Positions 2,684-62,440 of a stretch of 64,000 nucleotides of DNA are shown here, one piece after another. The DNA is from Bacilli bacterium (GTDB taxonomy: Bacteria; Bacillota_I; Bacilli_A; RF39; UBA660): contig JAFSVF010000015.1 in the NCBI GenBank assembly GCA_017450205.1, forward strand, positions 34,106 through 98,105. The letters are read 5' to 3'. Positions within the stretch are counted from its first letter, which is position 1. The number at the start of each line of letters is the position of its first letter. The notes beneath the pieces were generated by a model. It searched no databases. It worked only from the letters and a program-made list of their open reading frames with translations, and was not told where the DNA came from. Made by a program: the position numbers and the translations under genes.

Positions 2684-2712
2684 AAAAAAGATGAAGAATT
2701 TTATTCTTCATC
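2684..2712 (-). terminator. Rho-independent terminator overlapping the end of the coupling-protein gene
   Basis: Stem gatgaagaa (2690-2698) pairs with ttcttcatc (2704-2712), 5-nt loop. The A-run 2684-2689 on plus gives a U-run on the RNA. Confidence 0.5.
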
Positions 2713-5181
2713 AAAGAAATCGTCAAAGAACTCATCATCAGAAACATAATTATAAGGGTTTTCCTTAGGTTTAACAGGTGTTTCTGCTGGTTTAGATTCA
2801 CTTACTGGTTTTACAGTAGTTGATTCTACTTTGTTCATTGAATCAATTGTCATTTGTTTAGTCGGATCAATTATACCAGTTAATGGTTTATTAATAATTG
2901 GTTCACTTGGGAACTCAGGAGCCTTAGTTGTTTCATCAATTGGATTAGTAACCATTGGTTTTGGTTCAGGTTCACTAGATCCAGAACTTGCACTAGCTAA
3001 AATATCACTAAATGAAGCAACGTTTGATGGAGGTAACTTCTTATCATCCGGTGTTTCTAAATCATCTTTTGGAACAGATGGTAAATCTTTAGCACCAGCA
3101 TTATCAATTGTTGGATTAAGTTTATTTGATTCTTTTGCACGATTTTCAGCTTCTTCTTCAGCCTCAAGTTCAGCAATTTTAGCATCAATCTTCTTCATTA
3201 ATTCTTCAATATTTATTCCTTGAGGTCTAGGAGGTTGTGGTCTTGCATCTCTTTGTCCTCTTAGCATATCTTCAAACGATGATGGACCTGATGATTGTGG
3301 TCTTGATTGAGGCATTCCTCCCATACCACCAGGTATTCCAGAAGACATTCCACCACCAGGGAAAGCGCCACCCATTAATTGAGCAAATGGATTACTTCCA
3401 CCCATTTGGCCAAGAGGCATTCCACCTGGACCTTTAGGACCCATCTTATTATTAATTTTAGATTTCATTCTTAAATTAACAAACTCTTTAATTTGGAAAA
3501 CTTGAATTGGTCTCTTTTCTCTTGTAAAGAATTCAGCCTCTTCGTATTTTTCATCACCCCAATCAATATTAAATGCTTGTTTAAATTTAGTTTTAAACGG
3601 ATGCATTCTTGATCTTAAAACGATAACTTCATTCATTTGTAATTTTTGTAAATCTGCAACAGTAATTAATGGATGAGATTCACTCTTATCATCCTTTTTA
3701 CTCTTAACTTCACCACATAATTTAGAAATTTCTTCTAGAGCTGAAAGTTCAGTTGTTAAAAGATAAATTAAGTTACCACAGTTTGAACGAATTGTTTCAG
3801 CATCATCTTTACCATATACATCATTTAATTGAGCAAAGTTTTGAATAATAAATGTAAATCTAATTTGTCTTGAACGTGCAGCAGTAACCATTGTTGTAAC
3901 GTCTTTAAGCGCAGGCATGTTAGCAAACTCATCTAGTAAGAAGTTTGTTCTGACTGGAAGTGGTCCACCATTTGCTTGAGCAACATCAATTAAAGTTTCA
4001 TAAGCTTGTTTAATAAAAATTGTAGCAAGTGCATGATATGTTGTTTTTTCATCATGAATTATGATAAATACTGCTGTAGGTTTCTTACCAATATCAGCCA
4101 TATCAAAGTCACTATAAGATAACATTTCTGATAAGTTTTCACGAGATGCGAATACACGAATCTTTTGACGGAATGTAGAAAGAATACCACCTTTAGTTTC
4201 AGTTGGAGAATTTATTGTATTTGAAGCAAATACGTAAGCAGAAGATTCTTCACCTTTCATATTAAAGTATTCTTTAATATAGTTAGAACCAGCTCCAAAT
4301 TTATCTTCACCAACAGTAGTCATTACATTAATTGAACTAATATTACATTCTTCTTCTTTTGCATCTTGCATTAAACCAAGAGCACAACCAGAGAAATAGT
4401 CTCCAGCACTATCTTGCCAGAATGGATCTTGGGCATCTTTATCTTTAACGATATTTTTACCAATATCATCTACTAATTCAATTGCTTTATCTACATTACC
4501 TTCTTTATATAATCTATAAGGTAAAGATAATGGATTCCATGAATTACCTTGTCCAGGTTCACGGAAATTTAAAACTACTATATCATAACCTCTAGCCTTT
4601 AAGTGATTAGTATGTCTTTTATATAATTCACCCTTAGGGTCAGTCATAATCATAGATTCTTTATGTTTCATTAAACTATATATTAATGGATCAATAACAG
4701 CAGATGTTTTACCTGAACCAGTAATACCAATTACTAGTGTATGGTTTTCACTATTATCTACCCACATATTTTTACCATCATTAATTAAAACTGCACCAGC
4801 AGCAGGAGCATCAGGATCTTTAACTCCAACTTCAACAATTTTAAAGCCTTTTTTCATTTCTTTTTCTTTTAACCATCTAGAATATCCTTTTGATTCTTTT
4901 TCACCAAAAGATAAACCAAAACCTGATTCGGACTCAAAGATTTTAGATTCTACAGAGGCAAAAATAAATATTTCAATACCAAAGAAAATCATTAAAGTAA
5001 ATAAAATATGTGATAATTCAAAACCTGATAAAAAGTTTATAGTTGCTCCTTCTTCATTTATTAAACTAAAAATATTAGCTACAGTTAATGAACTTAGAAA
5101 AAGCAATACAATACTAAAAGCTATAAATTTAGCAAAATCGGCACCTCTTACTCTGAATTTCACAATATCTCCTTCTTTCAT
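2701..5181 (-). CDS. Type IV secretion coupling protein (VirD4/TraG/TcpA-like ATPase) with a long disordered C-terminal tail
   Basis: 826 aa. N-terminal TM helices, Walker A VIGITGSGKTSAV, Walker B NFLLDEFANMP, then ~250 aa of low complexity. The ATG at 5181 has no SD. The GTG at 5163 is preceded by GAAGGAG and is an alternative start. Confidence 0.85.
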   Translation of the reverse strand: MKEGDIVKFRVRGADFAKFIAFSIVLLFLSSLTVANIFSLINEEGATINFLSGFELSHILFTLMIFFGIEIFIFASVESKIFESESGFGLSFGEKESKGYSRWLKEKEMKKGFKIVEVGVKDPDAPAAGAVLINDGKNMWVDNSENHTLVIGITGSGKTSAVIDPLIYSLMKHKESMIMTDPKGELYKRHTNHLKARGYDIVVLNFREPGQGNSWNPLSLPYRLYKEGNVDKAIELVDDIGKNIVKDKDAQDPFWQDSAGDYFSGCALGLMQDAKEEECNISSINVMTTVGEDKFGAGSNYIKEYFNMKGEESSAYVFASNTINSPTETKGGILSTFRQKIRVFASRENLSEMLSYSDFDMADIGKKPTAVFIIIHDEKTTYHALATIFIKQAYETLIDVAQANGGPLPVRTNFLLDEFANMPALKDVTTMVTAARSRQIRFTFIIQNFAQLNDVYGKDDAETIRSNCGNLIYLLTTELSALEEISKLCGEVKSKKDDKSESHPLITVADLQKLQMNEVIVLRSRMHPFKTKFKQAFNIDWGDEKYEEAEFFTREKRPIQVFQIKEFVNLRMKSKINNKMGPKGPGGMPLGQMGGSNPFAQLMGGAFPGGGMSSGIPGGMGGMPQSRPQSSGPSSFEDMLRGQRDARPQPPRPQGINIEELMKKIDAKIAELEAEEEAENRAKESNKLNPTIDNAGAKDLPSVPKDDLETPDDKKLPPSNVASFSDILASASSGSSEPEPKPMVTNPIDETTKAPEFPSEPIINKPLTGIIDPTKQMTIDSMNKVESTTVKPVSESKPAETPVKPKENPYNYVSDDEFFDDFFDEE

Positions 5182-5258
5182 GTCATAGTATAATATAAAT
5201 AATATAAATTATCTATAATTAAATACACTTTTGATGCAAACTTTCATTTGCATTCACT

Positions 5259-5289
5259 ACTATACACCTCCATTTAACTGGAGAGTCAA
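5259..5289 (-). promoter_or_regulatory. MerR-type promoter/operator upstream of the coupling-protein gene
   Basis: The minus strand reads TTGACT (5289-5284), a 19-nt spacer CTCCAGTTAAATGGAGGTG, then TATAGT (5264-5259). The spacer holds a 15/16 palindrome CTCCAGTT/AAATGGAG. It is nearly identical to the promoter at 45652-45682. Confidence 0.5.
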
Positions 5290-5300
5290 ATAATTTTTCT

Positions 5301-5840
5301 TTAATACATTTTAGAAGCTCTTAAAGCTTTTATTAAAAATATCAATACTACTATTACTAAAATAATAACAACTAAGGCAACAATCATATATGATATCAAT
5401 TTTTTTGTTTCCTTATTTTCATTATTTTCTTCTTGTTCTTCTTCATCATTATTAATAACAGTTGTTACAGTCGTAGTAGTTAGAGAAGTATCAAATACAC
5501 TAAATTTAACTACTACTAAATCTTTACTAGTTGTTTTAGAACAATCAATTCTATATCTTCCAACACTGTCAGCTACACCATTTACATCAACTGTTCCATA
5601 TATAAAATTAACTTCATCATCATTAGGAAAATCACTAACTCTTAATTTAAAATCGTTACTTTTATTTAAAGTATATTCTTCGAATCCAGATTCTGATGTA
5701 GATGAATCAAATACAACTGTTAAAGAAGTTATATTATCTTTAATACGAGAATCAATCATAGCACTCATACTAACAGTTTTAGCAAAAGTACAAGCAGGAA
5801 ATAAGAAAAATAAACTAATAAAAATAATAATCTTTTTCAT
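5301..5840 (-). CDS. Surface-exposed type I membrane protein of unknown function (last gene of the T4SS channel operon)
   Basis: 179 aa. Signal peptide (FPACTFA then K), Thr-rich and acidic stalk, C-terminal TM anchor with a basic tail. Confidence 0.45.
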   Translation of the reverse strand: MKKIIIFISLFFLFPACTFAKTVSMSAMIDSRIKDNITSLTVVFDSSTSESGFEEYTLNKSNDFKLRVSDFPNDDEVNFIYGTVDVNGVADSVGRYRIDCSKTTSKDLVVVKFSVFDTSLTTTTVTTVINNDEEEQEENNENKETKKLISYMIVALVVIILVIVVLIFLIKALRASKMY

Positions 5841-5852
5841 ATATTTTCCTTT

Positions 5853-7160
5853 CTAAATTCCTTTATAAGAATAAAATCTCATATATACGTTTTTACTAGA
5901 ATAACTACTTACGATTATACCAGTTTTCTTACTACTTGCATGTACCCAAGTATTATTTCCTAAATATATTGCAGTATGTCCTTCACCATTTGCTCTTCTA
6001 ACTCCAACATCTCCCGGAGTCATTGTATCAAAAGTTCTAGAATCGAACCAATTACCACTATTACTATAAATAGTAGCAGTCGTACCAAAACCTGGATTAG
6101 AACCTAAACCTGTCCAGTATGCCCAGTTAACAAAAGAAGAACAGTCAAGACCAGTTGCAGGAATACCAGATAAACCAGGTCCTGTTGCATGACTACCATA
6201 TGTATATGGTAATCCAACAGCAGATAAAGCAGTCAAAATTATAGTACGTCTTGTTTGAGATAATACATTCCATCCAGGAATATTACTTGTAATCTTATCA
6301 ATCTCTTCTTGTGTTAATCTATGTCCACTAAATATTGGTGTACCACCACCACCAGGATTGTCATTATCGTCATCATCTTCATCATCTGTAGTTTCCCACT
6401 CATAATTATAAGTGTTCTCATAAATTTGATTTGAAGATGTATCATTTTCATCACTAATTGATGAAGAAACAACAAGTAAAAGCATAACTACAAAAATAAG
6501 GAAAAAAGAAGAAAACATTGCACCTATAATAATTCTATTTCTTAGTTTTTTCCTTCCCTCATTTACTTGTTTTAATCCTTCAGAGGCATCTGATAAGTTT
6601 CCATTCTTTAAACCTGATAAAGCTTTTGTACCACCTTCAATTGCATCATCTACTCCAACCTTTTCAAGTTCATCAGCAACCTTTTTAACAGCATCTCCTG
6701 CTACTCCTGAATTTTCAACAGTATTACTTACAACACCAACAAGTTTTTGACCTACTCGTGATTTTTCAATATTATCAGCAGCTTCAAGACCTTTAGTTCC
6801 TCCAAAATAAGCACCAGCTACTCTACCAACATTATTTGTAAGTCTAGCAACAGAATCCTGTTTAACTTTTCCATCTTCTCCAATTTCCATACCAGGAGCA
6901 ATTTTATCCCCAGGTTTATATCCAGGAACTTCATTTCCATTTTCATCAACTTGTGGCTCACCAGCTACTTGTTGACCAACTTGTGGTTGACCATCAGTAA
7001 TACCTAACTTGTCACTAACACTATCAATTGCATTTACTCCTTGATTGATAGCTTCAAGTTTAGGATTTCCACCACCAGATGGAGTTATACCTCCAACTGG
7101 ATTATTTTGTTGAGGTAATGTACTATTACCTGTAACTTGTGGAGTCTCATTCATAATCAT
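5853..7160 (-). CDS. Membrane-anchored NlpC/P60 peptidoglycan hydrolase (T4SS-associated)
   Basis: 435 aa. ~210-aa Gly/Val/Gln-rich N-domain, one TM helix, C-terminal NlpC/P60 motifs (GLPYTYG, GLDCSSFVNWAY, GHTAIYLG, VHASS). Confidence 0.8.
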   Translation of the reverse strand: MIMNETPQVTGNSTLPQQNNPVGGITPSGGGNPKLEAINQGVNAIDSVSDKLGITDGQPQVGQQVAGEPQVDENGNEVPGYKPGDKIAPGMEIGEDGKVKQDSVARLTNNVGRVAGAYFGGTKGLEAADNIEKSRVGQKLVGVVSNTVENSGVAGDAVKKVADELEKVGVDDAIEGGTKALSGLKNGNLSDASEGLKQVNEGRKKLRNRIIIGAMFSSFFLIFVVMLLLVVSSSISDENDTSSNQIYENTYNYEWETTDDEDDDDNDNPGGGGTPIFSGHRLTQEEIDKITSNIPGWNVLSQTRRTIILTALSAVGLPYTYGSHATGPGLSGIPATGLDCSSFVNWAYWTGLGSNPGFGTTATIYSNSGNWFDSRTFDTMTPGDVGVRRANGEGHTAIYLGNNTWVHASSKKTGIIVSSYSSKNVYMRFYSYKGI

Positions 7161-7173
7161 TACCTCCCTTTCT

Positions 7174-7701
7174 TTAAATTTGTCCCATAAAAGTTATTCT
7201 ATAATCATTTATACCATTTGCTACTAATTTAAATTCTATTCCTTCATTAGTAAGAATAACTATTATATTTCTATCAACTTTATAAGATTCAACCGTACTT
7301 TTTAAAACTTTCGAAGATCTTAATTTAGTTAACATATTTATTGCATCTTCTCTAGAAGTATATTTATTCTTCATTTTATTATCCATTAAATCATATAATT
7401 TCCCAGGATCTTTATCCCACATTTCAACTAATTTTTTTAAATAGAATTCCGCTAAATCTTGATCACTTTTTTCTATAATTTTATATTCATTAGCTTCATA
7501 TGTTTTTATAATATCAGGTGCTTGATCTAATGGTCCATTTTCTAATTCCGTTGAATTAATTCTTGCATTTCTAATACTATTATAAATAATTAATGATAAA
7601 AAACCAAAAACTACAACAAAGAATACTAAAAACAAAAGTGCATTTTCTTTAAAAAACTCTTTTAATCCATTATTTTCCATTAGCCACCTCACTGTATTCA
7701 T
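7174..7701 (-). CDS. N-anchored small protein, unknown function (candidate VirB8/TcpC-like scaffold by position only)
   Basis: 175 aa in the track. The likely start is Met8 at 7680, preceded by GAGGTG. Single N-terminal TM helix, then a ~130-aa soluble domain. Confidence 0.4.
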   Translation of the reverse strand: MNTVRWLMENNGLKEFFKENALLFLVFFVVVFGFLSLIIYNSIRNARINSTELENGPLDQAPDIIKTYEANEYKIIEKSDQDLAEFYLKKLVEMWDKDPGKLYDLMDNKMKNKYTSREDAINMLTKLRSSKVLKSTVESYKVDRNIIVILTNEGIEFKLVANGINDYRITFMGQI

Positions 7702-8230
7702 TTTCTACGATTGGTCTAATACTAAAATGGAATGTATTTCCATCTAAAATAACTTTTAAATATTCATTTTTATAAAATTCACCTGTTAAAGAATTTATTA
7801 ATTTTCCATCAACATAAAATGTCATAATTCCTTTATTAGATTTTACATACATTTTATTTGGTTGGAAAGATAACAAACTATCACTAACATACAAATAATT
7901 TTTAATATTACTTGAATTAATATTATTTTTATTAACATATTCTTCATCCAATATTTTAATAGCCGAATCATAATCTTTCATATTAACAAATGAATAAAAT
8001 TTTTCAATCGCAGTTGAAACAGTAGAATATCTACTAAAATCATCAACAATTTTATAACTTGCTTCACTAGAAGAATTCTTATCAAAAAGCTTTCTTAATC
8101 CATTAGACATTGGAAAAAAGAAATTAACAATTATTATTAAACCAATAATTACTAATAATCCAATTCCCCAATATGTTAATACTTTTTTTTCTTGTTTTGT
8201 AATACCTAATTTACTAGCCATAAATATCAC
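7670..8230 (-). CDS. N-anchored small protein, unknown function (candidate VirB8/TcpC-like scaffold by position only)
   Basis: 186 aa. N-terminal TM helix (LLVIIGLIIIVNFFF), then a soluble domain. No motif recognised. Confidence 0.4.
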   Translation of the reverse strand: MIFMASKLGITKQEKKVLTYWGIGLLVIIGLIIIVNFFFPMSNGLRKLFDKNSSSEASYKIVDDFSRYSTVSTAIEKFYSFVNMKDYDSAIKILDEEYVNKNNINSSNIKNYLYVSDSLLSFQPNKMYVKSNKGIMTFYVDGKLINSLTGEFYKNEYLKVILDGNTFHFSIRPIVENEYSEVANGK

Positions 8231-10585
8231 CTATAATCCCCAAATATTATATCTCCATTTAGACATACTACTTATATTATATAAACCATATGCTTCTTGA
8301 TCCTCAGCATTTGTTTTCATACATGAAGAACCACTACAACCTCCACTATTAGCATTATTGCACGCTCCTTCAACAGAAGAAACTCTTGATGTATTTGAAT
8401 AATATTGTTTTATATATGGGAAATAATAACATCCACCACTACTAGAAGATCCTTTTTCCCAATAATCACCAATATATGCATAATGTCCAATAGTAAATAC
8501 TTCCAAAGCACTTTCATATTTCTTAACTATACCTAAATTAGATAAACCTACAATTCCAGTTTCTAAAGATGAATACCTAGAACAAGCTTTTAATCCACCT
8601 TTATTTGTACATCCAATTCCCCAATAATTTTTATTAGAAGAATCAGCATTATTAGGTGAAAAACCTTCTACAATTGCTCTTACTACTGTAAACTCAGGAT
8701 TTAAACCACTTGCTTTAGACTTATCATAAATAAGACCAGCTTGATCAGCAAAATAACCAAGTCTCTTAGAATTACATGTATTCTTATTACAATATCCAAC
8801 TAACCCTGATATAAATTCTTCTCTAGTTAAAGAAGTAGTTCTCATAGAGAAATCTCCACCAACAAATCCACTTGGTCTAGGATCAGTTCTTTTTAATATA
8901 GAAAGTGGATCGATAGCATTATCAACACTATTACCATCTTGTCTTATTTCAAAATGCAAAGCAGCAGTATTAGTTCTACCAGTTTTACCAACTTTACCAA
9001 TTAATTGACCTCTTTGAACAGTAGTACCAACAGTAACACTAGAATCAATCGAACTTAATAATCCATAAACTGTATAATTACCATCAGAATGACTCAAAAT
9101 AATCATATTTCCATATCCATCATTACAATCAGTATCACCGACAGTACAACTATCATAAGTTAAAACTACTTCACCTTTTTCAACAGCTATAACATTAGTA
9201 GTTCCTTCTGTACCTGCAATATCTATACCATAATGGAATTCTTTTTCATTAGTAACAGGATTTGTTCTATCACCATAATTACTAATTACATTAGTACTAG
9301 ATGGTGCACCATCAGCATAAGTTACACCATTTCTCTCTTCTGTAGTATCACTACCAATTGGCCAATAATAAGCCTTTCTATCTTGCATAGGATTTCCAGG
9401 AATTAACTCACTTGAAGGAGTATAATCACCATAAGAAATACCTATTCCTAAACTGTCTAATATTTCTAATATATTTTTTATAATTTTTAATCTATCTTCT
9501 TTAATATAATCCATATATTTAAGATATTCTTCATCACCTTTGGCTTCAAGTGAATTATCACATACTTGTGACTTTAAGCAATCAGTATTACTATAACTTA
9601 AAACATCTTGGAAAAAATATTGTAAGTTTGCTTTTCCATCAAAATATGCATTTTCTTTAAGAAAATCAAAATACATTTCATAACTTACTCTAGGATCTTC
9701 ATTATAAACATAACCTACATCTTCGTATTTACCAGTATCTTTCCAAGCCATACACTCATCATAATGTTCATCTTCATCTTCAAATCCTAAAAATAATACA
9801 CTAGTAAATATACCTAAGATTTCATCATGTTTCATTCTACTTACAAAGTATTTCCAAAATCCCATTTCATAATTTTGAATATCAGCACATATTTCAGAAC
9901 CAAATGGAACATCATAAATAGTAGCATCCCCTTCACACCATTTTTCAAACGAACCATCTTTTCTTGTTGTAGATTGAACTTCACCAGTTTTACCATAACA
10001 TGTAGTCGTGTAAGCAACAGCGTTTCTAATAAGAACCTTTAATGTATCTCTTTCTTCAGAATAATAGTCAGCAAAATCCTTAGTATAAGTTGGTTCTACT
10101 GTTTCATCAGAGCCATCAGAATTATCACTATTAAAGCCCCAAAATGGAGATGGCCAATTTTTATAAAAATCACTTGAATTATTGTTATTATTTTGAATAT
10201 ATGGAGAATTACCAGTTGTAGGTGTTGCAAATTGTCCAAAAAATACTGTCCATAAAATTACTTGATCATTGATATCTAAACCTTTATTTTGATATTTAGT
10301 TAATAACTTATAAAGTTTTTTATAGAAACTTTCTAATGTATCACTTAAAGTTTCAACACACTCATCTACTTTATCTTGTCCTTGTTCATTATAAGAATTC
10401 TTACAATATTCAGTCCAATTCTCTAAATTAGCTTCTTTTAACTTTTCAAAATCAAAAGTTGAATAATCTTTTGTAGCAGCATATACAGGTTCAGTATACA
10501 TATTAATTACTATAACTGAAAAAAGTGCTATTACTAAAACCCCTTTTAATAATAGCATTAAACTTTCTTTAGTTACTTTTTTCAT
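8231..10585 (-). CDS. Secreted bifunctional cell-wall hydrolase: M23 peptidase plus glucosaminidase/lysozyme-like C-domain
   Basis: 784 aa. N-terminal signal/TM. M23 motifs HYGIDIAG, GYGNMIILSH, TGRTNTAALHFEIR. C-terminal segment GLNPEFTVVRAIVEGFSP...NYWGIGC. Confidence 0.8.
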   Translation of the reverse strand: MKKVTKESLMLLLKGVLVIALFSVIVINMYTEPVYAATKDYSTFDFEKLKEANLENWTEYCKNSYNEQGQDKVDECVETLSDTLESFYKKLYKLLTKYQNKGLDINDQVILWTVFFGQFATPTTGNSPYIQNNNNNSSDFYKNWPSPFWGFNSDNSDGSDETVEPTYTKDFADYYSEERDTLKVLIRNAVAYTTTCYGKTGEVQSTTRKDGSFEKWCEGDATIYDVPFGSEICADIQNYEMGFWKYFVSRMKHDEILGIFTSVLFLGFEDEDEHYDECMAWKDTGKYEDVGYVYNEDPRVSYEMYFDFLKENAYFDGKANLQYFFQDVLSYSNTDCLKSQVCDNSLEAKGDEEYLKYMDYIKEDRLKIIKNILEILDSLGIGISYGDYTPSSELIPGNPMQDRKAYYWPIGSDTTEERNGVTYADGAPSSTNVISNYGDRTNPVTNEKEFHYGIDIAGTEGTTNVIAVEKGEVVLTYDSCTVGDTDCNDGYGNMIILSHSDGNYTVYGLLSSIDSSVTVGTTVQRGQLIGKVGKTGRTNTAALHFEIRQDGNSVDNAIDPLSILKRTDPRPSGFVGGDFSMRTTSLTREEFISGLVGYCNKNTCNSKRLGYFADQAGLIYDKSKASGLNPEFTVVRAIVEGFSPNNADSSNKNYWGIGCTNKGGLKACSRYSSLETGIVGLSNLGIVKKYESALEVFTIGHYAYIGDYWEKGSSSSGGCYYFPYIKQYYSNTSRVSSVEGACNNANSGGCSGSSCMKTNAEDQEAYGLYNISSMSKWRYNIWGL

Positions 10586-10602
10586 AATATCACCGCCTAA
10601 TC

Positions 10603-12396
10603 TTATAGGCCGCCGCCTCCACCAAATGAATCTAATTCATCTTGTGTTAACACAACGTCTATTATCATTCTTCTCGAACCACATACAAATAATCCTCTAC
10701 CTTGTGGATAAGTTTTAATACTTTCCTTTTCAGCATCATTTAAATCTATTAACTTAGATAAATCTTCAACAGCTTGTTTCTTAAGACCCATAACTAAGTA
10801 GTAAGAAGCATTATCAAAGATTGCCTTACCTTGAGTAATTACTTGAGGGGAAGCAAAGTCTGTAGGTTGTTGAGTAATAATTATTGTACCAGTATTATAC
10901 TTTCTAGCACGTCTTTGCATTTGAGCTAAATACTCAGCACCTAGTTCATTATTACTTGATAATAATACATGAGCTTCATCAACATACATTATTGAATTAA
11001 CTCTTTTATCCAAACTTAATGACCATGCATATTTTAAAATATTAAAGAATAAAGCATTTCTTGTATTTGAATCACCATTCATTAAGTTTTTAATACTGAA
11101 AACTATAAATTTAGAATCAGAAGCTATTGTAGTATGACCATTAAAATAATAACGAGCTTCGTTAATAAATGGTCTAACTCTTAACTCTAATCTTTCCATA
11201 ACATCTCTTTCACGAGTTGCTTCTGGCATAGAAATAAGTTTTCCTTTAACAGTTGTATATACATCATCAAATGTTGGGAAGTTTTCAGTTTTAACTTTTG
11301 TAAAATCAGTATCATAATCTATACCAAATCTTTTATAAGTTTCTTGTAAAACTTCAGAAAACATTTGTAAAACATCATCTTCAATATCTGGAATATAATA
11401 TTTCATAAATGCTCTAACTGATTGAAGCGCAGAAGTAAGAATTGAAGTACCACTCTTAGAATCCATATCTCCTTCTTCAGTATCAGCAACAATTTCAAGT
11501 GGATTAATCATACCATATGATCCACCTTTTCCTAAATCAACAAATGAACCACCAAATGCTTTAGCCATTGATTCAAGTTCACCTTCAGGATCTATACAAA
11601 TAATTTGATAATTATTTCTAATGTGACCTCTTAATAACAACTTAGCAGTTGTTGATTTACCTGAACCAGATGTACCTAAAATTATAATATTAGCATTATT
11701 TCTATTTTGTTCTTTTTTAGTTTGATATAAAAATTGGTTAAATAATACTACACCACCTGAAGAATCCATTCCAAGTAAAGTACCCTTACCAGTATCTTTA
11801 ATAGAATCAAATACGAAAGGATACATTGCAGCCATTGTTGGCGCAGGAATTGGAACACCTATTCTTTCCTCTATATCTTGTTTAGGGAAAATAGGAATCA
11901 TTGATTTTAAAACCTTTTCTTGTTCAAACATTAAAGGAATTGCTCTCATTTGAAGAGAAATTAAATAATTTCTAATTTGTACTTTTCTATTATCTAATTC
12001 TTCTTGAGAATCAGCTACAATCATAATATGTAATTGAAAATCAAATACTTTAGATTGACTAGAAGCTAACATAGAAACGAAATTATCTAATGATTCATAA
12101 TCATTTCTTATTCTCTCTTTAAATGTTAAATCGTTTTCTTTTTGATACTCTTCTTTTAATTCAGCTACCTCTTTATTAATAGCTTTTTGCATTATTGCAA
12201 GTTCAATTGGAATATGTTTAACAACAACTTTAGCTCCAGGAATAGAAGATATATTACTTAAGTATCCTGGTCCTATAACTTGAGGAAACTCTACTACTGT
12301 ATAAATAGTTGCAAATTTATCACCTATGTTAAATTGAGTAGTTTTAAAATTTAATCCTTTAGGTGCTATTTCACTTTTTAATGTACTCTTTGCCAT
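10603..12396 (-). CDS. VirB4-like T4SS ATPase, central and C-terminal part
   Basis: 597 aa. Walker A GTSGSGKSTTAKLLL, DPEGE, Walker B MYVDEAHVLL. Resembles Gram-positive VirB4 (TcpF/PrgJ/Tn916 Orf16 type) lacking its N-domain. Confidence 0.85.
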   Translation of the reverse strand: MAKSTLKSEIAPKGLNFKTTQFNIGDKFATIYTVVEFPQVIGPGYLSNISSIPGAKVVVKHIPIELAIMQKAINKEVAELKEEYQKENDLTFKERIRNDYESLDNFVSMLASSQSKVFDFQLHIMIVADSQEELDNRKVQIRNYLISLQMRAIPLMFEQEKVLKSMIPIFPKQDIEERIGVPIPAPTMAAMYPFVFDSIKDTGKGTLLGMDSSGGVVLFNQFLYQTKKEQNRNNANIIILGTSGSGKSTTAKLLLRGHIRNNYQIICIDPEGELESMAKAFGGSFVDLGKGGSYGMINPLEIVADTEEGDMDSKSGTSILTSALQSVRAFMKYYIPDIEDDVLQMFSEVLQETYKRFGIDYDTDFTKVKTENFPTFDDVYTTVKGKLISMPEATRERDVMERLELRVRPFINEARYYFNGHTTIASDSKFIVFSIKNLMNGDSNTRNALFFNILKYAWSLSLDKRVNSIMYVDEAHVLLSSNNELGAEYLAQMQRRARKYNTGTIIITQQPTDFASPQVITQGKAIFDNASYYLVMGLKKQAVEDLSKLIDLNDAEKESIKTYPQGRGLFVCGSRRMIIDVVLTQDELDSFGGGGGL

Positions 12397-13037
12397 TAAC
12401 TCATCACCGTTCCAAACTCTGTTTTTATGCCATCATTGAAGAAACTATCAAGAATAACTCTTGCATCATCATCTGTAATTTGACGACTATTTAATTGAGC
12501 TTGTGCAAGCCCAGAAATCATATTTGCAACTCTTTTTTGTAATTGTTCAATATTTTTTGTAGGTCCTTTAATTAATATGAAGAATTCAGTATCAACAGAA
12601 TTATATGTAGGACCACTAAATTGTTCACATTTTCTTATATCTTGTTGTATTAACTTTCTAATTTGAGTATCGTTTGCTTCATTATACATGATTTCAAGTT
12701 CTGATTTAAATAAATTAATATCTACAGGTCTATCACAACAAATTAACCAAAACTCATCATGTAAAGTATTATAAAAATCCATTAAAGCATTGATTACATA
12801 AGCTTGATTTTGAGTATCAGTAATAAAAATATTTTTAGGTTCAATACGAACACCAGTTATATATTGTTCGCCACCCATTAAACCTTCACCTTTTACTTTA
12901 ATATACCCATTCTTAATATCAATTATAGGTAACCAATCTTCCGTATATTTAGCACTATTGTTCTTTGTCTTCGCCACGTAGCATACACCAACCTCTCCAT
13001 CTATATTTTCTTTGACTAGTAAAATATGTATAAACAT
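12396..13037 (-). CDS. VirB4 N-terminal domain encoded as a separate ORF
   Basis: TEDWLPIIDIKNGYIKVKG...YITGVRIEPKNIF resembles the N-domain of Gram-positive VirB4. Its TAA stop overlaps the ATG of 10603-12396 (TAATG). The start is uncertain: ATG 13037 has no SD and overlaps the upstream ORF by 83 nt, and GTG 12977 is possible. Confidence 0.55.
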   Translation of the reverse strand: MFIHILLVKENIDGEVGVCYVAKTKNNSAKYTEDWLPIIDIKNGYIKVKGEGLMGGEQYITGVRIEPKNIFITDTQNQAYVINALMDFYNTLHDEFWLICCDRPVDINLFKSELEIMYNEANDTQIRKLIQQDIRKCEQFSGPTYNSVDTEFFILIKGPTKNIEQLQKRVANMISGLAQAQLNSRQITDDDARVILDSFFNDGIKTEFGTVMS

Positions 13038-13275
13038 TTACTGTAAAAGTCCAAAAATTTCTATGATTTGGAACAGGAGACAACATTACTACAGAAATTA
13101 GTAGTGGTGCCAATCCAACCAAAACTTGAGCAGGAGTATCAGTCCCAAGAGCTGCAATCAAAATTGCAGTAAGTGATCCACCTATAACAAATATAATAAT
13201 ATCAACTGGTTTAAATAAACCAAATATCAACATAGATCTTTTTGTATTTGCCGGAATTAAATATCTATTATTCAT
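12955..13275 (-). CDS. PrgI/TcpE/VirB3-like small two-TM T4SS protein
   Basis: 106 aa. SD AGGAGA. Two TM helices followed by a basic tail (YFTSQRKYRW). Size, topology and position before VirB4 fit this role. Confidence 0.5.
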   Translation of the reverse strand: MNNRYLIPANTKRSMLIFGLFKPVDIIIFVIGGSLTAILIAALGTDTPAQVLVGLAPLLISVVMLSPVPNHRNFWTFTVNVYTYFTSQRKYRWRGWCMLRGEDKEQ

Positions 13276-13305
13276 AATTCCATCTCCTTTTTATTCTAAT
13301 ATACA

Positions 13306-15879
13306 TTACTTATCCTTTGGACCACTGCCAAGGTTATTAACACTTCTATTAGCAAAGTAACTAACTTTAGTACCTTCAAGACCACCTTTAATATTACTAA
13401 TGCTTTCTCCTACAGTCTTTTCAGCTTTTGAAAGACTATGAACGTATTTTGCAACTCCAAGTCTAAGTTTCTTTTGATCATCTTCACTTAGTGTCGCTAG
13501 TTTTGCATTATAAACATCACCAAATTTTCTATCTCCCATCAATTCTAAAATTTTATTATAATCATCACTCGCAGGATCAACACCATTATTTAAATCTTTC
13601 AATAAATCTCGAACCTCAGTAAATTCCCTTGATTCAAATGCAGTCTTTGAAGCACTTTTAATAGTTTCCTCTAATTGAGGATATGATCTAATAGTATCTG
13701 CGTATTGTGCATTTAAATTTCTATTAGAATTTGCTATATTCATAATATCTTCAACACCAGTTGTCTCAAATGATTTAGCTATAGCATTAATTTCTGCTTT
13801 ATTAACATAATCTTTACTAATTTTTTTAACATGTTCTTCAAGCTTTCTTTCAGCTTCTGCTCTATTAGTTACATGATCAATACCAATTTCTTGAGAAATA
13901 TCTCTACCTTTCCAAGAAGCACTATAACCAATTAAATTATTATGATCATCAAATACTTCTTTTAAGGAAGCAGCAGCATTTCTATCCCATACCGCAACAT
14001 CAGCTTTGGCAGCCTTACTTGCAGAATCACTTCTTTGTAAAATACCATTTGATGTAGTTTGATAACTAGTACCAGCAGCATAAAGAATAGAATCTTCAAC
14101 TCCAACAAGACTACCTTGCATAGCAGATGTAAATTCTCCTAATCTACCTTCTGTTAAATTGTTAAAGAATGCTCTCTTATCCTCTCTCCATTCATTAGCT
14201 CGAGTATCTCTAGTCATTTTATCATTAATTGCTCGTTCATTCGATTGTCTCATAGCTTGTGTTAACGAACCTTTACCAAGTCCTTTTTCAAAACCAGTTT
14301 TTGTACCAATTTGTAAACCTCTAGCACCTGCTAAGAAACTATCTAATCTTCCGCCACCTTTATTTTTAACAGCATTCATAGCAGACTTAGCACCAAGTAA
14401 ACCACCAGCAACCGCTCCAATTGGTTTAGTAACAGTACCAATTGCTTTTTTCTCAGCATCAACTGCATCTTTAACTTTAGTAAATGATCTCGTAGGATTT
14501 AAATCGATACCACTTAATAATCCACCAGCATTTTTTGCTAAATCCTTTAACATATCTGGAATTTCTTTTCCAGCTCTTAAAAGACCAATAACTAACGCAA
14601 AATAAGTAACTGCCTTTAACATAAAGTTATGAGATTCATCTTCAGCACTAACATTTTCAAAAATACCAAATAGTGCATCAAAAATTGAAGGCAATAGCTT
14701 AATCATTAAAGCAATAAATGCAATAACAAAAACTCTCACAAAAATATCAATGTATGTTTTTATATACTTTTCTCTCCAAGAAGTATATAATTTTTCATTT
14801 TTAGGAATAGTTCCTAATAGAATTGGAACAGGAGCAATCATTTGTAAAAATGCAAGTTTGAATGCCCTTACAGCAACATCTAAAGTATAAGCAACAATAA
14901 AGAATAAAATAACAATACCACCCAAAGGTGCAAAGAAATAATATTCCATATTATTTTCTTGATAAATCTCATCAATTAAAGTTAAATGAGAAGCAAGTTG
15001 ATGTGCTTTATTTCTATAACCTACTTTACTCTCGGAATAATTTGTTATAGAAGAAACCTCATTAGGTTTAACATCTTGTACTTTACCTTCAGGCAATCCT
15101 CCTTGATACAAATACCAATAATAATATTCACAAGTAGTTACACTATTATTCGCATCATGCATCCACTCAATTATGCCACCAATAACAGCACCTAAACCAG
15201 GATTTCCAAGCGCCATTCCAATAGCAAGTCCAACTCCCGCTCCAGTCAAAGTCCTTGCAATGGAATCTTGTGAAATATTTCCTCCCACATAATTCGCACA
15301 AGCATCAGATGATGACTTAAGTGAACCATCTGTATTATAAAAATCAGTAAATTCTGTTCCTATTGGGTGGAATACAGAAATATAAAGCATTGACGCCATT
15401 GTATTTCCACCTTCAATAACACTATCAGATTGACTAGCATTCTCACCCAGAACTATATTCCAAATTAAATTATCACTAACTAAAACATGATATTGAATTA
15501 AAGATAAATAATGGAAAACTAAAGGTGCAATAATAGTCAAAATTATACCTTTAACAACATTTGTAACAAGTTTTCTCGATTCTTTTACACCCTTATCCGG
15601 ATCTATAACAAAAAGAATTATTTGATAAGCAAGAATAAACATTATTATTATACCAATAACACTATAAATTCTCTTAGAAAAAGCTTGATAAACTTCCATA
15701 GCACCTTCAGTGCCACTTGTATATCCACCAAAAAGATCAAGTGTACCTAAAATTAAAAAAACTTTATATGCAAATCCGATAAGAGAATAAACTACATTAT
15801 CTATAACAAAAATAAAAAATCTATAAATTGAATCCCAAAAGAAATTTTGTATCCAATCTGTAATTGCTAGAAGAATCAT
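13306..15879 (-). CDS. VirB6/TcpH-like polytopic T4SS channel protein
   Basis: 857 aa. About 8 hydrophobic helices in the first ~450 aa, then a ~400-aa hydrophilic Gly/Ala/Lys-rich domain. First gene of the block. Called from topology and position, not from a motif. Confidence 0.55.
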   Translation of the reverse strand: MILLAITDWIQNFFWDSIYRFFIFVIDNVVYSLIGFAYKVFLILGTLDLFGGYTSGTEGAMEVYQAFSKRIYSVIGIIIMFILAYQIILFVIDPDKGVKESRKLVTNVVKGIILTIIAPLVFHYLSLIQYHVLVSDNLIWNIVLGENASQSDSVIEGGNTMASMLYISVFHPIGTEFTDFYNTDGSLKSSSDACANYVGGNISQDSIARTLTGAGVGLAIGMALGNPGLGAVIGGIIEWMHDANNSVTTCEYYYWYLYQGGLPEGKVQDVKPNEVSSITNYSESKVGYRNKAHQLASHLTLIDEIYQENNMEYYFFAPLGGIVILFFIVAYTLDVAVRAFKLAFLQMIAPVPILLGTIPKNEKLYTSWREKYIKTYIDIFVRVFVIAFIALMIKLLPSIFDALFGIFENVSAEDESHNFMLKAVTYFALVIGLLRAGKEIPDMLKDLAKNAGGLLSGIDLNPTRSFTKVKDAVDAEKKAIGTVTKPIGAVAGGLLGAKSAMNAVKNKGGGRLDSFLAGARGLQIGTKTGFEKGLGKGSLTQAMRQSNERAINDKMTRDTRANEWREDKRAFFNNLTEGRLGEFTSAMQGSLVGVEDSILYAAGTSYQTTSNGILQRSDSASKAAKADVAVWDRNAAASLKEVFDDHNNLIGYSASWKGRDISQEIGIDHVTNRAEAERKLEEHVKKISKDYVNKAEINAIAKSFETTGVEDIMNIANSNRNLNAQYADTIRSYPQLEETIKSASKTAFESREFTEVRDLLKDLNNGVDPASDDYNKILELMGDRKFGDVYNAKLATLSEDDQKKLRLGVAKYVHSLSKAEKTVGESISNIKGGLEGTKVSYFANRSVNNLGSGPKDK

Positions 15880-18100: not shown

Positions 18101-18646
18101 TTATTTGCTTAAAGCTTCTACTAATTCAGCTTTTTTCATATTAGCTGCATCTTTAATTCCATTAGCTTCAGCCATTTCTCTTAATTCAGCAACTTTTAAT
18201 GAATTTAAATCAGTATTTTCTGCTACAGTTTCAGTTTCAGCAGCTTTAACTGCTTTATTAGCTTTTTCAACTTTAGTTTGAGCAACTTTACCATTTAAAG
18301 CATCTTTAGCAATATTTACATAAGAAGTAAATAATTTAGCATTATCGATAGCTACTTCAGAAAGCATCTTTCTATTGATAATAACACCAGCTTTAGTTAA
18401 ACCATTGATAAATCTTGAGTAAGAAATATCATTCATTCTACAAGCAGCATTAATTCTTGTAATCCATAATTTTCTGAAGTTTCTCTTATTCATCTTTCTG
18501 TCTCTATAAGCATAATGTCCTGAATGCATTAATTGTTCTTGAGCAGTTTTGAATAATCTGTGTTTAGAACCAAAATAACCTTTAGCTCTTTTTAATACTT
18601 TTCTACGTCTATTCTTTGCAACGTTTCCGCCTTTAACTCTTGTCAT
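18101..18646 (-). CDS. rplT: 50S ribosomal protein L20 with a ~60-aa C-terminal extension
   Basis: The first ~118 aa are canonical L20 ([43 protein letters not shown]). The extra tail ends in [35 protein letters not shown]. Confidence 0.95.
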
Positions 18647-60404: not shown

Positions 60405-61757
60405 ATGGTGAATGTTATGAAAAATAGTTTAGCTATTATACTAAATAAAACAATTAGTTTAGGTTGTAAAATATTAAAACCTATTTTAAAGAAAGATGGT
60501 TCAGTTACTCCAGGGTACTATGCATCTAAATTAAATAAGAATATACTTGATGAATTAGAATATCCAAACTTAAGAATTGGTGTTACTGGTTCTTCAGGAA
60601 AAGGAACAACTACTAAGTTAATTGCACATGTTCTAAAGGAAAATGGATATAAAGTAGTATGGAATGAAAATGGTTCTAACCTATTTAATGCAGCAGCTAC
60701 TCTTCTTTTAAACAACTCAGGAACATTTAATAAAAGAATTAAAGCAGATGTTGTTTTAATGGAACTAGATGAAAGTTATGTTAATAAAGTATTTCATAAA
60801 AATAAATTAACTCATTTAGTAATTACTAATTTAACTAGAGATCAAGTAGCTAGAAATGGTTCTCCTGAAGTAGTATATAAAAAAATACTTAATGCTCTAG
60901 ATGGTGAAACTGAACTTATCATTAATGGAGATGATATTTTAGTTAATAAATTTTCTCTAGATCATAAAGGAAAGCTAGTTAAATATGGAATTGGTAAAAC
61001 AAAGAATGATACTAAAGAACCTACTATCCCAGTAGATGGAGTTTATTGTCCAAAGTGTCATAGTAAAATTAAATATAATTACTATCACTATGGTCATTTA
61101 GGAGATTATAAATGTCCTAAGTGTTCTTTTGAAAGAGGACCTATCAAATATGAAACAACTAATGTTAATTTACTTTCAAGAACTATTAAAATAAACAATA
61201 ATAAAGTAAATATTAATTCAAGTTTTATGTTTAGTGCTTATGCTTTTACAGCAGCCTATTCTCTACTTAAAGAACTAGGACTTACTGATACACAAATAAT
61301 AAATTCATTTAATACTTATTCATCTAAACTTGAAGAATTTCCATATTTAGGTAAAAGAAGAATTGAAATGTTAGATTCTAAACACGAAAATAACTTAAGT
61401 TATGAATCTAGTCTTTCCTATATTAAAGAAATGCCAGGAGATAAAACAGTTATAATTGGATTTGATAATGTATCAAGAAGATATAACTTTAATGATTTAT
61501 CTTGGTTATATGATATAAACTTTAGTGTTCTAAATGATAAATCAATTGATAAAATATATATAATTGGTAAATTTAAATATGATGTATATTCATGTTTAAT
61601 TCATAATAAAGTTAATAAAAAGAAAATAATTCTTGTAGATGATTATAAAAATAATCTACTTAAGAAAATTAAAAATAATTCTAAAGGTAATATTTATTCA
61701 ATGGTATTTGTTGATACAATGGAACCTATTCTTAAATCACTTAAGGAGGTTAAATAA
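60405..61757 (+). CDS. murT: Lipid II isoglutaminyl synthase subunit MurT
   Basis: 450 aa. Mur-ligase P-loop GVTGSSGKGTT, four-Cys ribbon CPKC...CPKC, C-terminal DUF1727-like part. 1-nt overlap with gatD. Confidence 0.85.
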   Translation: MVNVMKNSLAIILNKTISLGCKILKPILKKDGSVTPGYYASKLNKNILDELEYPNLRIGVTGSSGKGTTTKLIAHVLKENGYKVVWNENGSNLFNAAATLLLNNSGTFNKRIKADVVLMELDESYVNKVFHKNKLTHLVITNLTRDQVARNGSPEVVYKKILNALDGETELIINGDDILVNKFSLDHKGKLVKYGIGKTKNDTKEPTIPVDGVYCPKCHSKIKYNYYHYGHLGDYKCPKCSFERGPIKYETTNVNLLSRTIKINNNKVNINSSFMFSAYAFTAAYSLLKELGLTDTQIINSFNTYSSKLEEFPYLGKRRIEMLDSKHENNLSYESSLSYIKEMPGDKTVIIGFDNVSRRYNFNDLSWLYDINFSVLNDKSIDKIYIIGKFKYDVYSCLIHNKVNKKKIILVDDYKNNLLKKIKNNSKGNIYSMVFVDTMEPILKSLKEVK

Positions 61758-62416
61758 TGAAATCAATTAAAATATTACACCTTTACTATGATCTAATGAA
61801 TCTATCTGGTGAAGATGGAAACATGGTAGCTATCAAAGACTTTCTTGATAATGAAGGATGTAAATATCAAATAGATAAATTATCTTTAAATGATAAAATA
61901 GATTTTAATAAATATAGTTTTATATATATCGGCGATGGTTCAAGAGAAGCTCAAGAACTAGCAAGACAAGATATTTTAAAATATAAATATCAATTAAAAA
62001 AAGTATTTAAAGATAAACTTATCTTAGCAACTGGTAACTCATTTGAACTATTCGGTTCATCAATAGATAATAAAGAATGTCTTAATCTATTACCATTTAA
62101 AACTTTATATTTAAAAGACTATGTTGTAGAAGAAAAAATCGTAGATACAGACTTTTTTAATAAACCAGTAATTGCTTTTGTTAATAGAAATAGTGAAGCT
62201 AAAATAAAAAGTAATTACTTCTTAAATAAAGATGGTATACATACAGATAACTTCTATGGAACTTACTTTTTAGGTCCACTTCTAATAAGAAACCCTTATT
62301 TATTAAATAGATTTATGGAACTTCTATTTAAAAAGAATGATATGAAAATTACAAGTGACTATAAAAATGTAGATATCCTAGCATATAATGAATATTTAAA
62401 AAATTATAAAAAATAA
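61757..62416 (+). CDS. gatD: GatD-like (CobQ-type glutamine amidotransferase) partner of MurT, apparently lacking the catalytic Cys and His
   Basis: 219 aa. IKILHLYYDLMNLSGEDGNMVAI and FIYIGDGSRE parallel GatD. The expected CGG-Y-Q-x-LG is GNSFELFG and the expected GTYLHGP is GTYFLGP. Confidence 0.65.
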   Translation: MKSIKILHLYYDLMNLSGEDGNMVAIKDFLDNEGCKYQIDKLSLNDKIDFNKYSFIYIGDGSREAQELARQDILKYKYQLKKVFKDKLILATGNSFELFGSSIDNKECLNLLPFKTLYLKDYVVEEKIVDTDFFNKPVIAFVNRNSEAKIKSNYFLNKDGIHTDNFYGTYFLGPLLIRNPYLLNRFMELLFKKNDMKITSDYKNVDILAYNEYLKNYKK

Positions 62417-62440
62417 GAACTTCAATTGAAGTTCTTTTTT
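62416..62440. terminator. Bidirectional terminator between the convergent gatD and lemA genes
   Basis: Perfect hairpin agaacttcaattgaagttct (62416-62435) followed by a T-run. Confidence 0.65.

Follow-up and report, generated by a model that had tools for sequence, protein, structure and literature searches.

A MurT ligase retained with a predicted pseudo-glutaminase GatD partner in uncultured gut Bacilli

The window analysed here, a 64,000-nucleotide stretch of contig JAFSVF010000015.1 from a Bacilli bacterium (GTDB Bacilli_A; RF39; UBA660; assembly GCA_017450205.1), carries a murT gene (60405..61757, forward strand) encoding a 450 aa Mur-ligase-type subunit with intact catalytic residues, followed directly by a gatD homologue (61757..62416, forward strand) whose 219 aa product, here termed GatD*, is without the residues of the glutaminase site. 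The comparisons below leave it well supported that GatD* is a pseudo-glutaminase kept with MurT, while the further propositions that it serves only as a structural partner and that the nitrogen comes from ammonia are best guesses. The reading favoured here, held with middling confidence, proposes that GatD* would be the glutaminase-dead but obligatory partner of an active MurT ligase, with nitrogen most likely drawn from free ammonia or ammonium and D-iso-glutamine as the product.

The loss of the glutaminase site emerges from alignment with solved GatD proteins. Searched with phmmer against the chains of the Protein Data Bank (PDB), GatD* matched only GatD proteins, the best being Streptococcus pyogenes GatD (9sq9_C, E 1.7e-15) and S. 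pneumoniae GatD (6fqb_E, 1.1e-13), with Staphylococcus aureus GatD (5n9m_A/6gs2_A) at E about 2e-11. In these alignments the segment LATGNSFELFG lies under LAICGGFQLLG and LTICGGYQFLG, placing Gly93 at the nucleophile Cys, and GTYFLGP lies under GSYFHGP and GTYLHGP, placing Leu172 (62270..62272) at the catalytic His with the following Gly-Pro kept; MAFFT alignments with canonical GatDs of the same class returned the same Cys and His columns. The former nucleophile elbow accordingly reads Thr92-Gly93-Asn94 (62030..62038), with Gly93 replacing the catalytic Cys. A first-pass annotation of this stretch had proposed both substitutions, and with them an inactive glutaminase half, by comparison with S. 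aureus GatD strings; those strings agree with the PDB sequences, every string that it quoted from the window is present, and both substitutions hold. Unlike characterised GatD, GatD* also lacks the middle Gly of the GGG oxyanion strand and carries Glu for the Gln of CGGYQ. In addition, the Gln-sequestering Arg (R128 in S. aureus) is lost in this lineage, being Tyr in GatD* and its nearest relatives (..KDYVVEE..), and is kept in many other members of the clade. No Pfam family, GATase_3 included, was found in GatD* at E<=0.01, and the NCBIfam GatD equivalog model NF045636 gave 67.4 bits against a cut-off of 400.

Mutational work on the S. aureus enzyme indicates what such losses may mean. The published account reports that GatD C94A, H189A and R128A were each dead for glutaminase (PMC5871853), and GatD C94S and MurT D349N are described as inactive or severely impaired (PMC6113224). 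The natural GatD* combines three lesions, at the positions of C94, H189 and R128, and glutaminase activity is therefore very unlikely; the alignments thus support the conclusion that the site is gone: Cys and His are both lost, as is the Gln-binding Arg in this lineage. As the catalytic Cys of GatD is reported to sit in a strained backbone conformation (PMC5871853), a Gly at the elbow would be structurally comfortable. GatD* contains two Cys (35 and 108) and two His (8 and 162), none of them in a catalytic column. The possibility that a catalytic Cys or His lies at another place in the protein was dismissed, since relatives do not conserve Cys35 or Cys108, and His8 and His162 also occur in canonical GatD.

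The loss extends well beyond this genome. The first-pass annotation had treated it as the peculiarity of one genome, a view that did not survive the survey of orthologues that it had itself suggested: the substitutions come back in each orthologue examined, whether close or distant, and chance or sequencing error is excluded on that ground. A GatD-like gene was found in 23 of 41 related genomes. The 18 sequences that come from the family and order of the window all have Gly where the Cys would stand and, wherever the His column is reached, a hydrophobic residue there, and the five GatDs from other families of the same class are canonical, with CGGYQ and HG[PS]. Among the best 120 of 1044 matches in a collection of 5.8 billion proteins (42-98% identity), Thr-Gly-Asn is present in all and His stands at the His column in none, one sequence ending before that column. 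These matches were pooled with 80 loci of species-representative genomes into a set of 205 distinct sequences, in which Gly occupies the Cys column in 205/205, Thr92 is found in 205/205 and Asn94 in 204/205, position 95 is Ser (125) or Ala (80), and Glu97 is present in 173. The His column of the same set holds Leu (129), Ile (58), Phe (6), Ser (5), Val (4) or Thr (3), and never His, and averaged over the columns of GatD* the commonest residue reaches a frequency of only 0.61.

Given these columns, it is very unlikely that GatD* hydrolyses glutamine or another amide through Thr92, Ser95 or a non-aligned Cys, or that a glutaminase is supplied in trans. Thr92 and Ser/Ala95 do flank the old nucleophile position, and the Asp of MurT that completes the triad (Asp364, below) is retained. 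However, no His or other general base occupies the triad position in any of the 205 sequences, position 95 is Ala in 80 of them, the two Cys are unconserved, and S. aureus C94S is reported as inactive (PMC6113224). As for a substitute glutaminase in trans, neither a second GatD-like gene nor a class-I glutamine amidotransferase (GATase) domain was found in the rest of the genome that carries the window (1.41 Mb in 28 contigs, 92% complete).

Wider searches returned the same picture. Searching 1.84 billion cluster representatives (50%-identity clusters) with a profile gave 3168 proteins at E<=1e-3, of which 1663 reach <=1e-10 and 406 reach <=1e-30; among the best 150 representatives the Cys column holds Gly in 144, Cys in 3 (all with His), Ser in 1 and gaps in 2. 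A motif scan with one genome per species found the dead form in at least 585 species genomes, whose records are gut metagenome-assembled genomes. Their titles name uncultured members of the Bacilli, Tenericutes or Mycoplasmatota, as well as 'Firmicutes bacterium CAG:582' and 'Candidatus Coprovivens'; NCBI files the last under Bacilli incertae sedis, and the group corresponds to the GTDB order RF39. An even sample of the order gave a GatD-like gene in 77 of 201 genomes and none in 124. Seventeen of the weaker matches from this sample, in 16 regions, comprise one canonical GatD (genome G073) and 16 further dead variants with x-G-N/T/M/S at the elbow and L, I, E, T, V, Q or A at the His column, each with its own murT. 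The canonical GatD of G073, which belongs to the same family of bacteria as the window (LICGGFQLFG, GTYLHGP), groups with the canonical GatDs of other families and may reflect retention or re-acquisition. In an unrooted GatD tree of 45 sequences, which took in a minority of the 205, the canonical proteins including that of G073 form one clade (SH-aLRT 100) with the dead forms opposite, a topology compatible with one old loss of the catalytic residues. Judged by these sequences, the dead GatD is an old and widespread family with paralogues and fused forms and not an oddity of one genome. In genomes G025, G132 and G157 the GatD-like genes are broken by TAA stops, which suggests occasional decay in some lineages, or assembly errors. 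Full-text literature searches found no description of a glutaminase-dead GatD; a Bulleidia paper mentions the phylogeny of MurT and not GatD.

GatD* is not decaying, and both genes of the pair are under purifying selection, with dN/dS over 11 pairs of 0.08-0.34 for gatD* and 0.06-0.23 for murT. An AlphaFold2 model built on a 23-row alignment (pLDDT 93.3) has a helix at residues 204-218, and the top nine PDB matches of this model in Foldseek are GatD chains without exception (TM 0.79-0.86, E about 1e-18), with HisH/PdxT next at E about 1e-9, nine orders of magnitude behind. We are confident from the model that GatD* has the class-I GATase fold with the GatD-specific C-terminal helix, an element reported to pack on MurT (PMC6113224). 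The S. aureus GatD residues described as contacting MurT are G21, A25, G190, P191 and K195 (PMC6113224), and their equivalents in GatD* are G21, A25, G173, P174 and R178, found in 203, 182, 205, 205 and 200 of the 205 sequences, respectively. The last three belong to the loop Gly173-Pro174-...-Arg178-Asn179-Pro180 (62273..62296), which packs on MurT in the S. aureus complex and is conserved in the family, with Asn179 present in 205/205 and Pro180 in 203/205.

The two genes are also kept side by side. The TAA of murT (61755-61757) and the ATG of gatD* (61757-61759) have the A at 61757 in common, the 1-nt overlap reported in the first-pass annotation, and a Shine-Dalgarno sequence AAGGAGG for gatD* (61743..61749, forward strand) lies inside the end of murT, 8 nt upstream of the ATG. 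Adjacency, overlap and Shine-Dalgarno sequence together predict a two-gene operon, closed by a hairpin terminator that would act in both directions (62415..62436). In 103 of 103 loci, some of them duplicates of the same genomes, murT stands directly upstream of gatD*. A natural 793-aa MurT-GatD* fusion (P0192) carries the dead motifs ATGNAHE and TYMTGP, and a 726-aa MurT-GatD fusion (P0227) carries canonical CGGYQ and HGP. Conservation of the contact residues, adjacency and natural fusion argue that GatD* binds MurT. Compared with the MurT/GatD complexes of S. aureus, S. pneumoniae and S. pyogenes (6gs2, 6h5e, 6fqb, 9sq9), the pair is alike in its two-gene operon and in the contact residues of both sides, and GatD* is alike in its fold with the extra C-terminal helix.

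That the operon might be a functionless, decaying relic in a lineage losing its peptidoglycan is extremely unlikely. MurC-F, Ddl and MurI are largely missing from the genus, the copies in G025, G132 and G157 are interrupted by stops, and a GatD-like gene is absent from 124 of 201 genomes of the order, about 6 in 10, all of which such a relic would lead one to expect. However, each of the 11 pairs gives a dN/dS far under 1, the reading frames are unbroken, motifs stay invariant although the sequences share only 35-45% identity, the catalytic residues of MurT are intact, and MurA, MurB, MraY, MurG and two penicillin-binding proteins (PBPs) are intact in the same genome.

In the ligase half the catalytic residues are intact. 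MurT comprises the Pfam domains MurT_C and Mur_ligase_M, matches S. aureus MurT (7q8e_A/6gs2_B) at E 1e-48 in phmmer, and scores 186 bits against the NCBI equivalog model, for which the cut-off is 800. When 91 partners of dead GatD were compared with canonical MurTs of the same class, of which there were only 5, the residues kept in both groups were G62, G65, K66, N87, E120, D122, E123, R145, D146, Q147, R150, C215, C218, C237, N329, S366, W367 and D370. The P-loop TGSSGKGT (residues 61-68) lies at 60585..60608 and the Cys4 zinc-ribbon insertion CPKC...CPKC (residues 215-240) at 61047..61124; a Cys4 ribbon has been described in S. aureus and S. pneumoniae MurT (PMC6113224, PMC6085368). HMMER aligns Asp364 (61494..61496) with D349 of S. 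aureus MurT, the residue that completes the triad of GatD; Asp364 stands within a D-x-S-W-I/L-Y/W-D context that matches the triad Asp of characterised MurTs, and of the 91 clade members 81 have Asp and 10 have Glu at this position. The domains and the conserved ligase residues bear out the earlier description of murT as intact, with P-loop, ribbon and C-terminal domain, and the triad Asp to which that description had drawn attention is retained. MurT thus resembles its characterised counterparts: it has the P-loop, the acidic residues that bind Mg, the Cys4 ribbon and the MurT_C domain, as well as the Asp that extends into GatD.

Two features set this MurT apart from characterised MurT. Beside Asp364, the motif Ser357-Arg358-Arg359-Tyr360 (61473..61484), within D-N-V-S-R-R-Y...N-D, stands where an acidic D-G-x-D or DNAAD-type stretch was, with Ser357 in 91/91 clade members, Arg358 in 89/91, Arg359 in 81 and Lys in 10, and Tyr360 in 90/91. 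The DNAAD motif has been discussed for MurT (PMC6113224). Further, Glu328 (61386..61388; K-x-E-N-x) is present in 91/91 clade members in place of the Lys of the K-N-P loop, which is found in 4 of the 5 canonical MurTs. The invariant Thr92-Gly93-Asn94, taken with these co-changes in MurT, suggests that the site has been remodelled and not simply tolerated. The earlier suggestion was that GatD* survives with a structural role only. Its retention is favoured by purifying selection and the conserved contact residues; the 'only' is not, since Thr92-Gly93-Asn94 is invariant and MurT has changed with it.

A mechanism may be constructed on this basis in which GatD* would carry out no glutamine hydrolysis and MurT would amidate lipid II from free NH3/NH4+, giving D-iso-glutamine. 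The rebuilt pocket (Thr92-Gly93-Asn94, Ser/Ala95 and mostly Glu97, facing Asp364 and the Ser-Arg-Arg-Tyr motif of MurT) could be an entry or binding site for NH4+/NH3 that feeds the old ammonia path, and such a site would allow use at neutral pH, beyond the limit of the laboratory mutant. Ammonia and ammonium are abundant in the gut. The closest precedent is the engineered S. aureus GatD C94G, with a Cys-to-Gly substitution identical to the natural one: paired with MurT it is reported to amidate lipid II with NH3/NH4Cl at pH 8.5 and not with glutamine (Munch et al. 2012, PMC3266927). According to the same report MurT alone was inactive with any donor, and there was no ammonia-dependent amidation at pH 7.5 (PMC3266927). 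The mutant differs in that its His and the remainder of its pocket are unchanged and, as described, it uses ammonia only at pH 8.5, whereas in the natural family the whole elbow and the facing MurT segment are rebuilt and the state is kept across hundreds of species. Human CPS1, a carbamoyl phosphate synthetase I as found in ureotelic vertebrates, offers a second precedent, being described as an ammonia-dependent synthetase with an inactive glutaminase-like domain, in which the catalytic Cys is replaced by Ser and external ammonia is taken up (PMC4655335). However, the CPS1 synthetase is unrelated, its glutaminase-like domain is fused and its His, on the same account, is retained, so that the likeness is one of principle and not of homology.

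Several observations weigh against ammonia-fed amidation. Because the S. aureus reaction proceeds only at pH 8.5, an ammonia-using enzyme at neutral pH would need adaptations, and these we infer. No ammonium transporter was found in the 92%-complete genome. A shortage of glutamine provides no simple rationale either, because an AsnB-type amidotransferase with an intact N-terminal Cys implies that glutamine is available. The strict invariance of Thr-Gly-Asn and the co-changes of MurT at the Ser-Arg-Arg-Tyr motif and Glu328 would exceed the needs of a passive scaffold. Two or three MurT-GatD* operons in one genome, sometimes clustered with an ATP-grasp ligase, fit a diversified ligation chemistry better than a single amidation. 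Finally, the genus is mostly without MurC-F, Ddl and MurI, which leaves the origin and structure of the MurT substrate in doubt. The AsnB-type protein is a glutamine-hydrolysing asparagine synthase by profile (TIGR01536, 522 bits; contig C28 of the window's genome, 139970-141850; L112:1279-3156), which could be an asparagine synthetase or a peptidoglycan (mDAP/D-Asp) amidotransferase. In profile searches of the same genome GlnA was not found and GlmS was not found above cut-off; glutamine scarcity was considered as a driver of the loss and is weakened, as GlnA was not found and yet the glutamine-dependent AsnB with intact Cys is present.

A possible but clearly less probable alternative is that MurT-GatD* does not amidate and instead ligates an amino acid, a diamine or a bridge peptide to the alpha-carboxyl of D-iso-Glu, as in the interpeptide bridge of B-type peptidoglycan or in glycine, D-Ala-amide or polyamine substituents, with the GatD*/MurT interface binding or positioning the amine. 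Erysipelothrix, a relative within the Bacilli, has a B-type murein cross-linked via the alpha-carboxyl of D-Glu, and we know of no ligase for this bond. A new nucleophile of this kind would account for an old active site that has been fixed anew (Thr92 and Gly93 in 205/205 and Asn94 in 204/205, against the column mean of 0.61) and for a MurT changed in concert, with a basic Ser-Arg-Arg-Tyr for the acidic stretch and Lys replaced by Glu328 in 91/91. It would further suit the paralogous MurT-GatD* pairs, which reach two or three operons in genomes G050, G069 and G215 (L134-L138), all with dead GatDs, although such paralogues could simply amidate other carboxylates. However, the amine would have to arrive at the acyl-phosphate site of MurT, with which the GatD pocket communicates in solved complexes only by an ammonia-sized path (PMC6085368), and the changes in GatD* therefore need not concern donor binding. 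A literature search for B-type peptidoglycan together with MurT found nothing relevant.

The same alternative draws on a linked ATP-grasp ligase. A protein of the PF14397 family ('sugar-transfer associated ATP-grasp', E 4.5e-49) is encoded two genes from murA in the window's genome (contig C16, 1272-2282, reverse strand; L120:1269-2282), with a second paralogue at C28:76055-76996. The ligase occurs in 18 of 41 relatives, comprising 12 of 12 genomes of the genus together with G012, G017, G018, G019, G022 and G023. The genera that have it are those with GatD*, the exceptions being G007 (87% complete), in which no GatD* was found, and G025, with a broken GatD-like copy and no ATP-grasp. In the order sample (n=201; thresholds 1e-3 and 1e-20), 62 genomes have both, 15 only the GatD-like gene, 4 only the ATP-grasp and 120 neither, counts that do not amount to a statistical test, as the genomes are related. 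In 10 genomes the ATP-grasp and murT-gatD* lie no more than about 3.2 kb apart, and contig C2 of G215 carries the run ATP-grasp-MurT-GatD*-MurT'-GatD*'. This linkage speaks for a new nucleophile, but the co-occurrence is confounded by common ancestry and in the window's own genome the ATP-grasp lies near murA and not near murT.

The peptidoglycan pathway of the genus bears on what MurT may act upon. In the window's genome MurA, MurB, MraY, MurG, a class A PBP, a class B PBP, two VanY/LdcB carboxypeptidases, a sortase B and an LCP transferase are all intact and above cut-offs. Neither Ddl nor MurI turned up in this 92%-complete genome, and no Mur ligase other than MurT was found in it with Mur_ligase_M, Mur_ligase_C (E<=1) or the MurE model; phmmer --max with MurT, same-genus MurE and MurF-like queries against all open reading frames (ORFs) of at least 80 aa likewise returned MurT only. 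Across 12 genomes of the genus Ddl was found in 0 and MurI in 1, MurT is the sole Mur_ligase_M match in 7, one (G007) has no match, and 4 keep only an mDAP-type MurE, two of which (G006 and G010) add a divergent Mur-ligase-like gene; G005 (6 contigs, 96% complete) has only MurE and MurT. Dead GatD predates the loss of Mur ligases, because G012, G017, G018 and G023 hold GatD* together with 5-7 Mur_ligase_M matches and Ddl. A 2024 survey reports that the peptidoglycan pathways of RF39 and its neighbours have missing steps and that these bacteria may scavenge muropeptides, and its text does not mention MurT or GatD (PMC10868615). It is rather unlikely, though worth considering, that MurT-GatD* is not an amidating enzyme at all and works with the ATP-grasp ligase, in its own genus possibly in an unconventional building or completion of stem peptides on salvaged or lipid-linked precursors. 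In the division cluster of the window's genome (C28:36697-40570; L124), mraZ, mraW, a gene for a 97 aa protein and a PBP with a PASTA domain are followed by ORFs without family match, which stand where murE, mraY and murD usually come; mraY and murG are on other contigs.

Around the operon, ftsA and ftsZ adjoin murT-gatD* within the window. In 80 loci of gatD* operons the commonest neighbours are ftsA (16), queH (13), an integrase (12), ftsQ (11), murB (10) and murG (9), and no strictly conserved third operon gene was found among the flanking genes, FtsA being the commonest at 16/80. Elsewhere in the window, a mycoplasma-type integrative conjugative element occupies 2701-15879 on the reverse strand, with a VirD4-like CD1115 protein (2701-5181), a protein with a peptidoglycan metallopeptidase domain (8231-10585), a VirB4 of the Mbov_0397 family split over 10603-12396 and 12396-13037, and an MMCAP2_0566-family protein (13306-15879). 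At 18101-18646 (reverse strand) lies a gene for ribosomal protein L20 with a C-terminal extension, an NCBIfam 'sunset domain variant', and a homologue from a related locus has Rho_N.

MurT/GatD is classed as a glutamine amidotransferase, and in staphylococci, streptococci and mycobacteria it is regarded as a drug target. In uncultured gut Bacilli a large natural family appears to have discarded the glutaminase chemistry while keeping both proteins, and the automatic label 'CobQ-like glutamine amidotransferase' would misstate the chemistry of GatD*. The formation of iso-Gln, or an alternative modification of the same carboxylate, could thus be uncoupled from glutamine. If the reading with a new amine were true, a long-missing type of enzyme that substitutes the alpha-carboxyl of D-Glu would have been identified. 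The dead GatD* family offers a natural test of the roles that GatD may play beyond the making of ammonia, whether as scaffold, allosteric switch or channel entrance.

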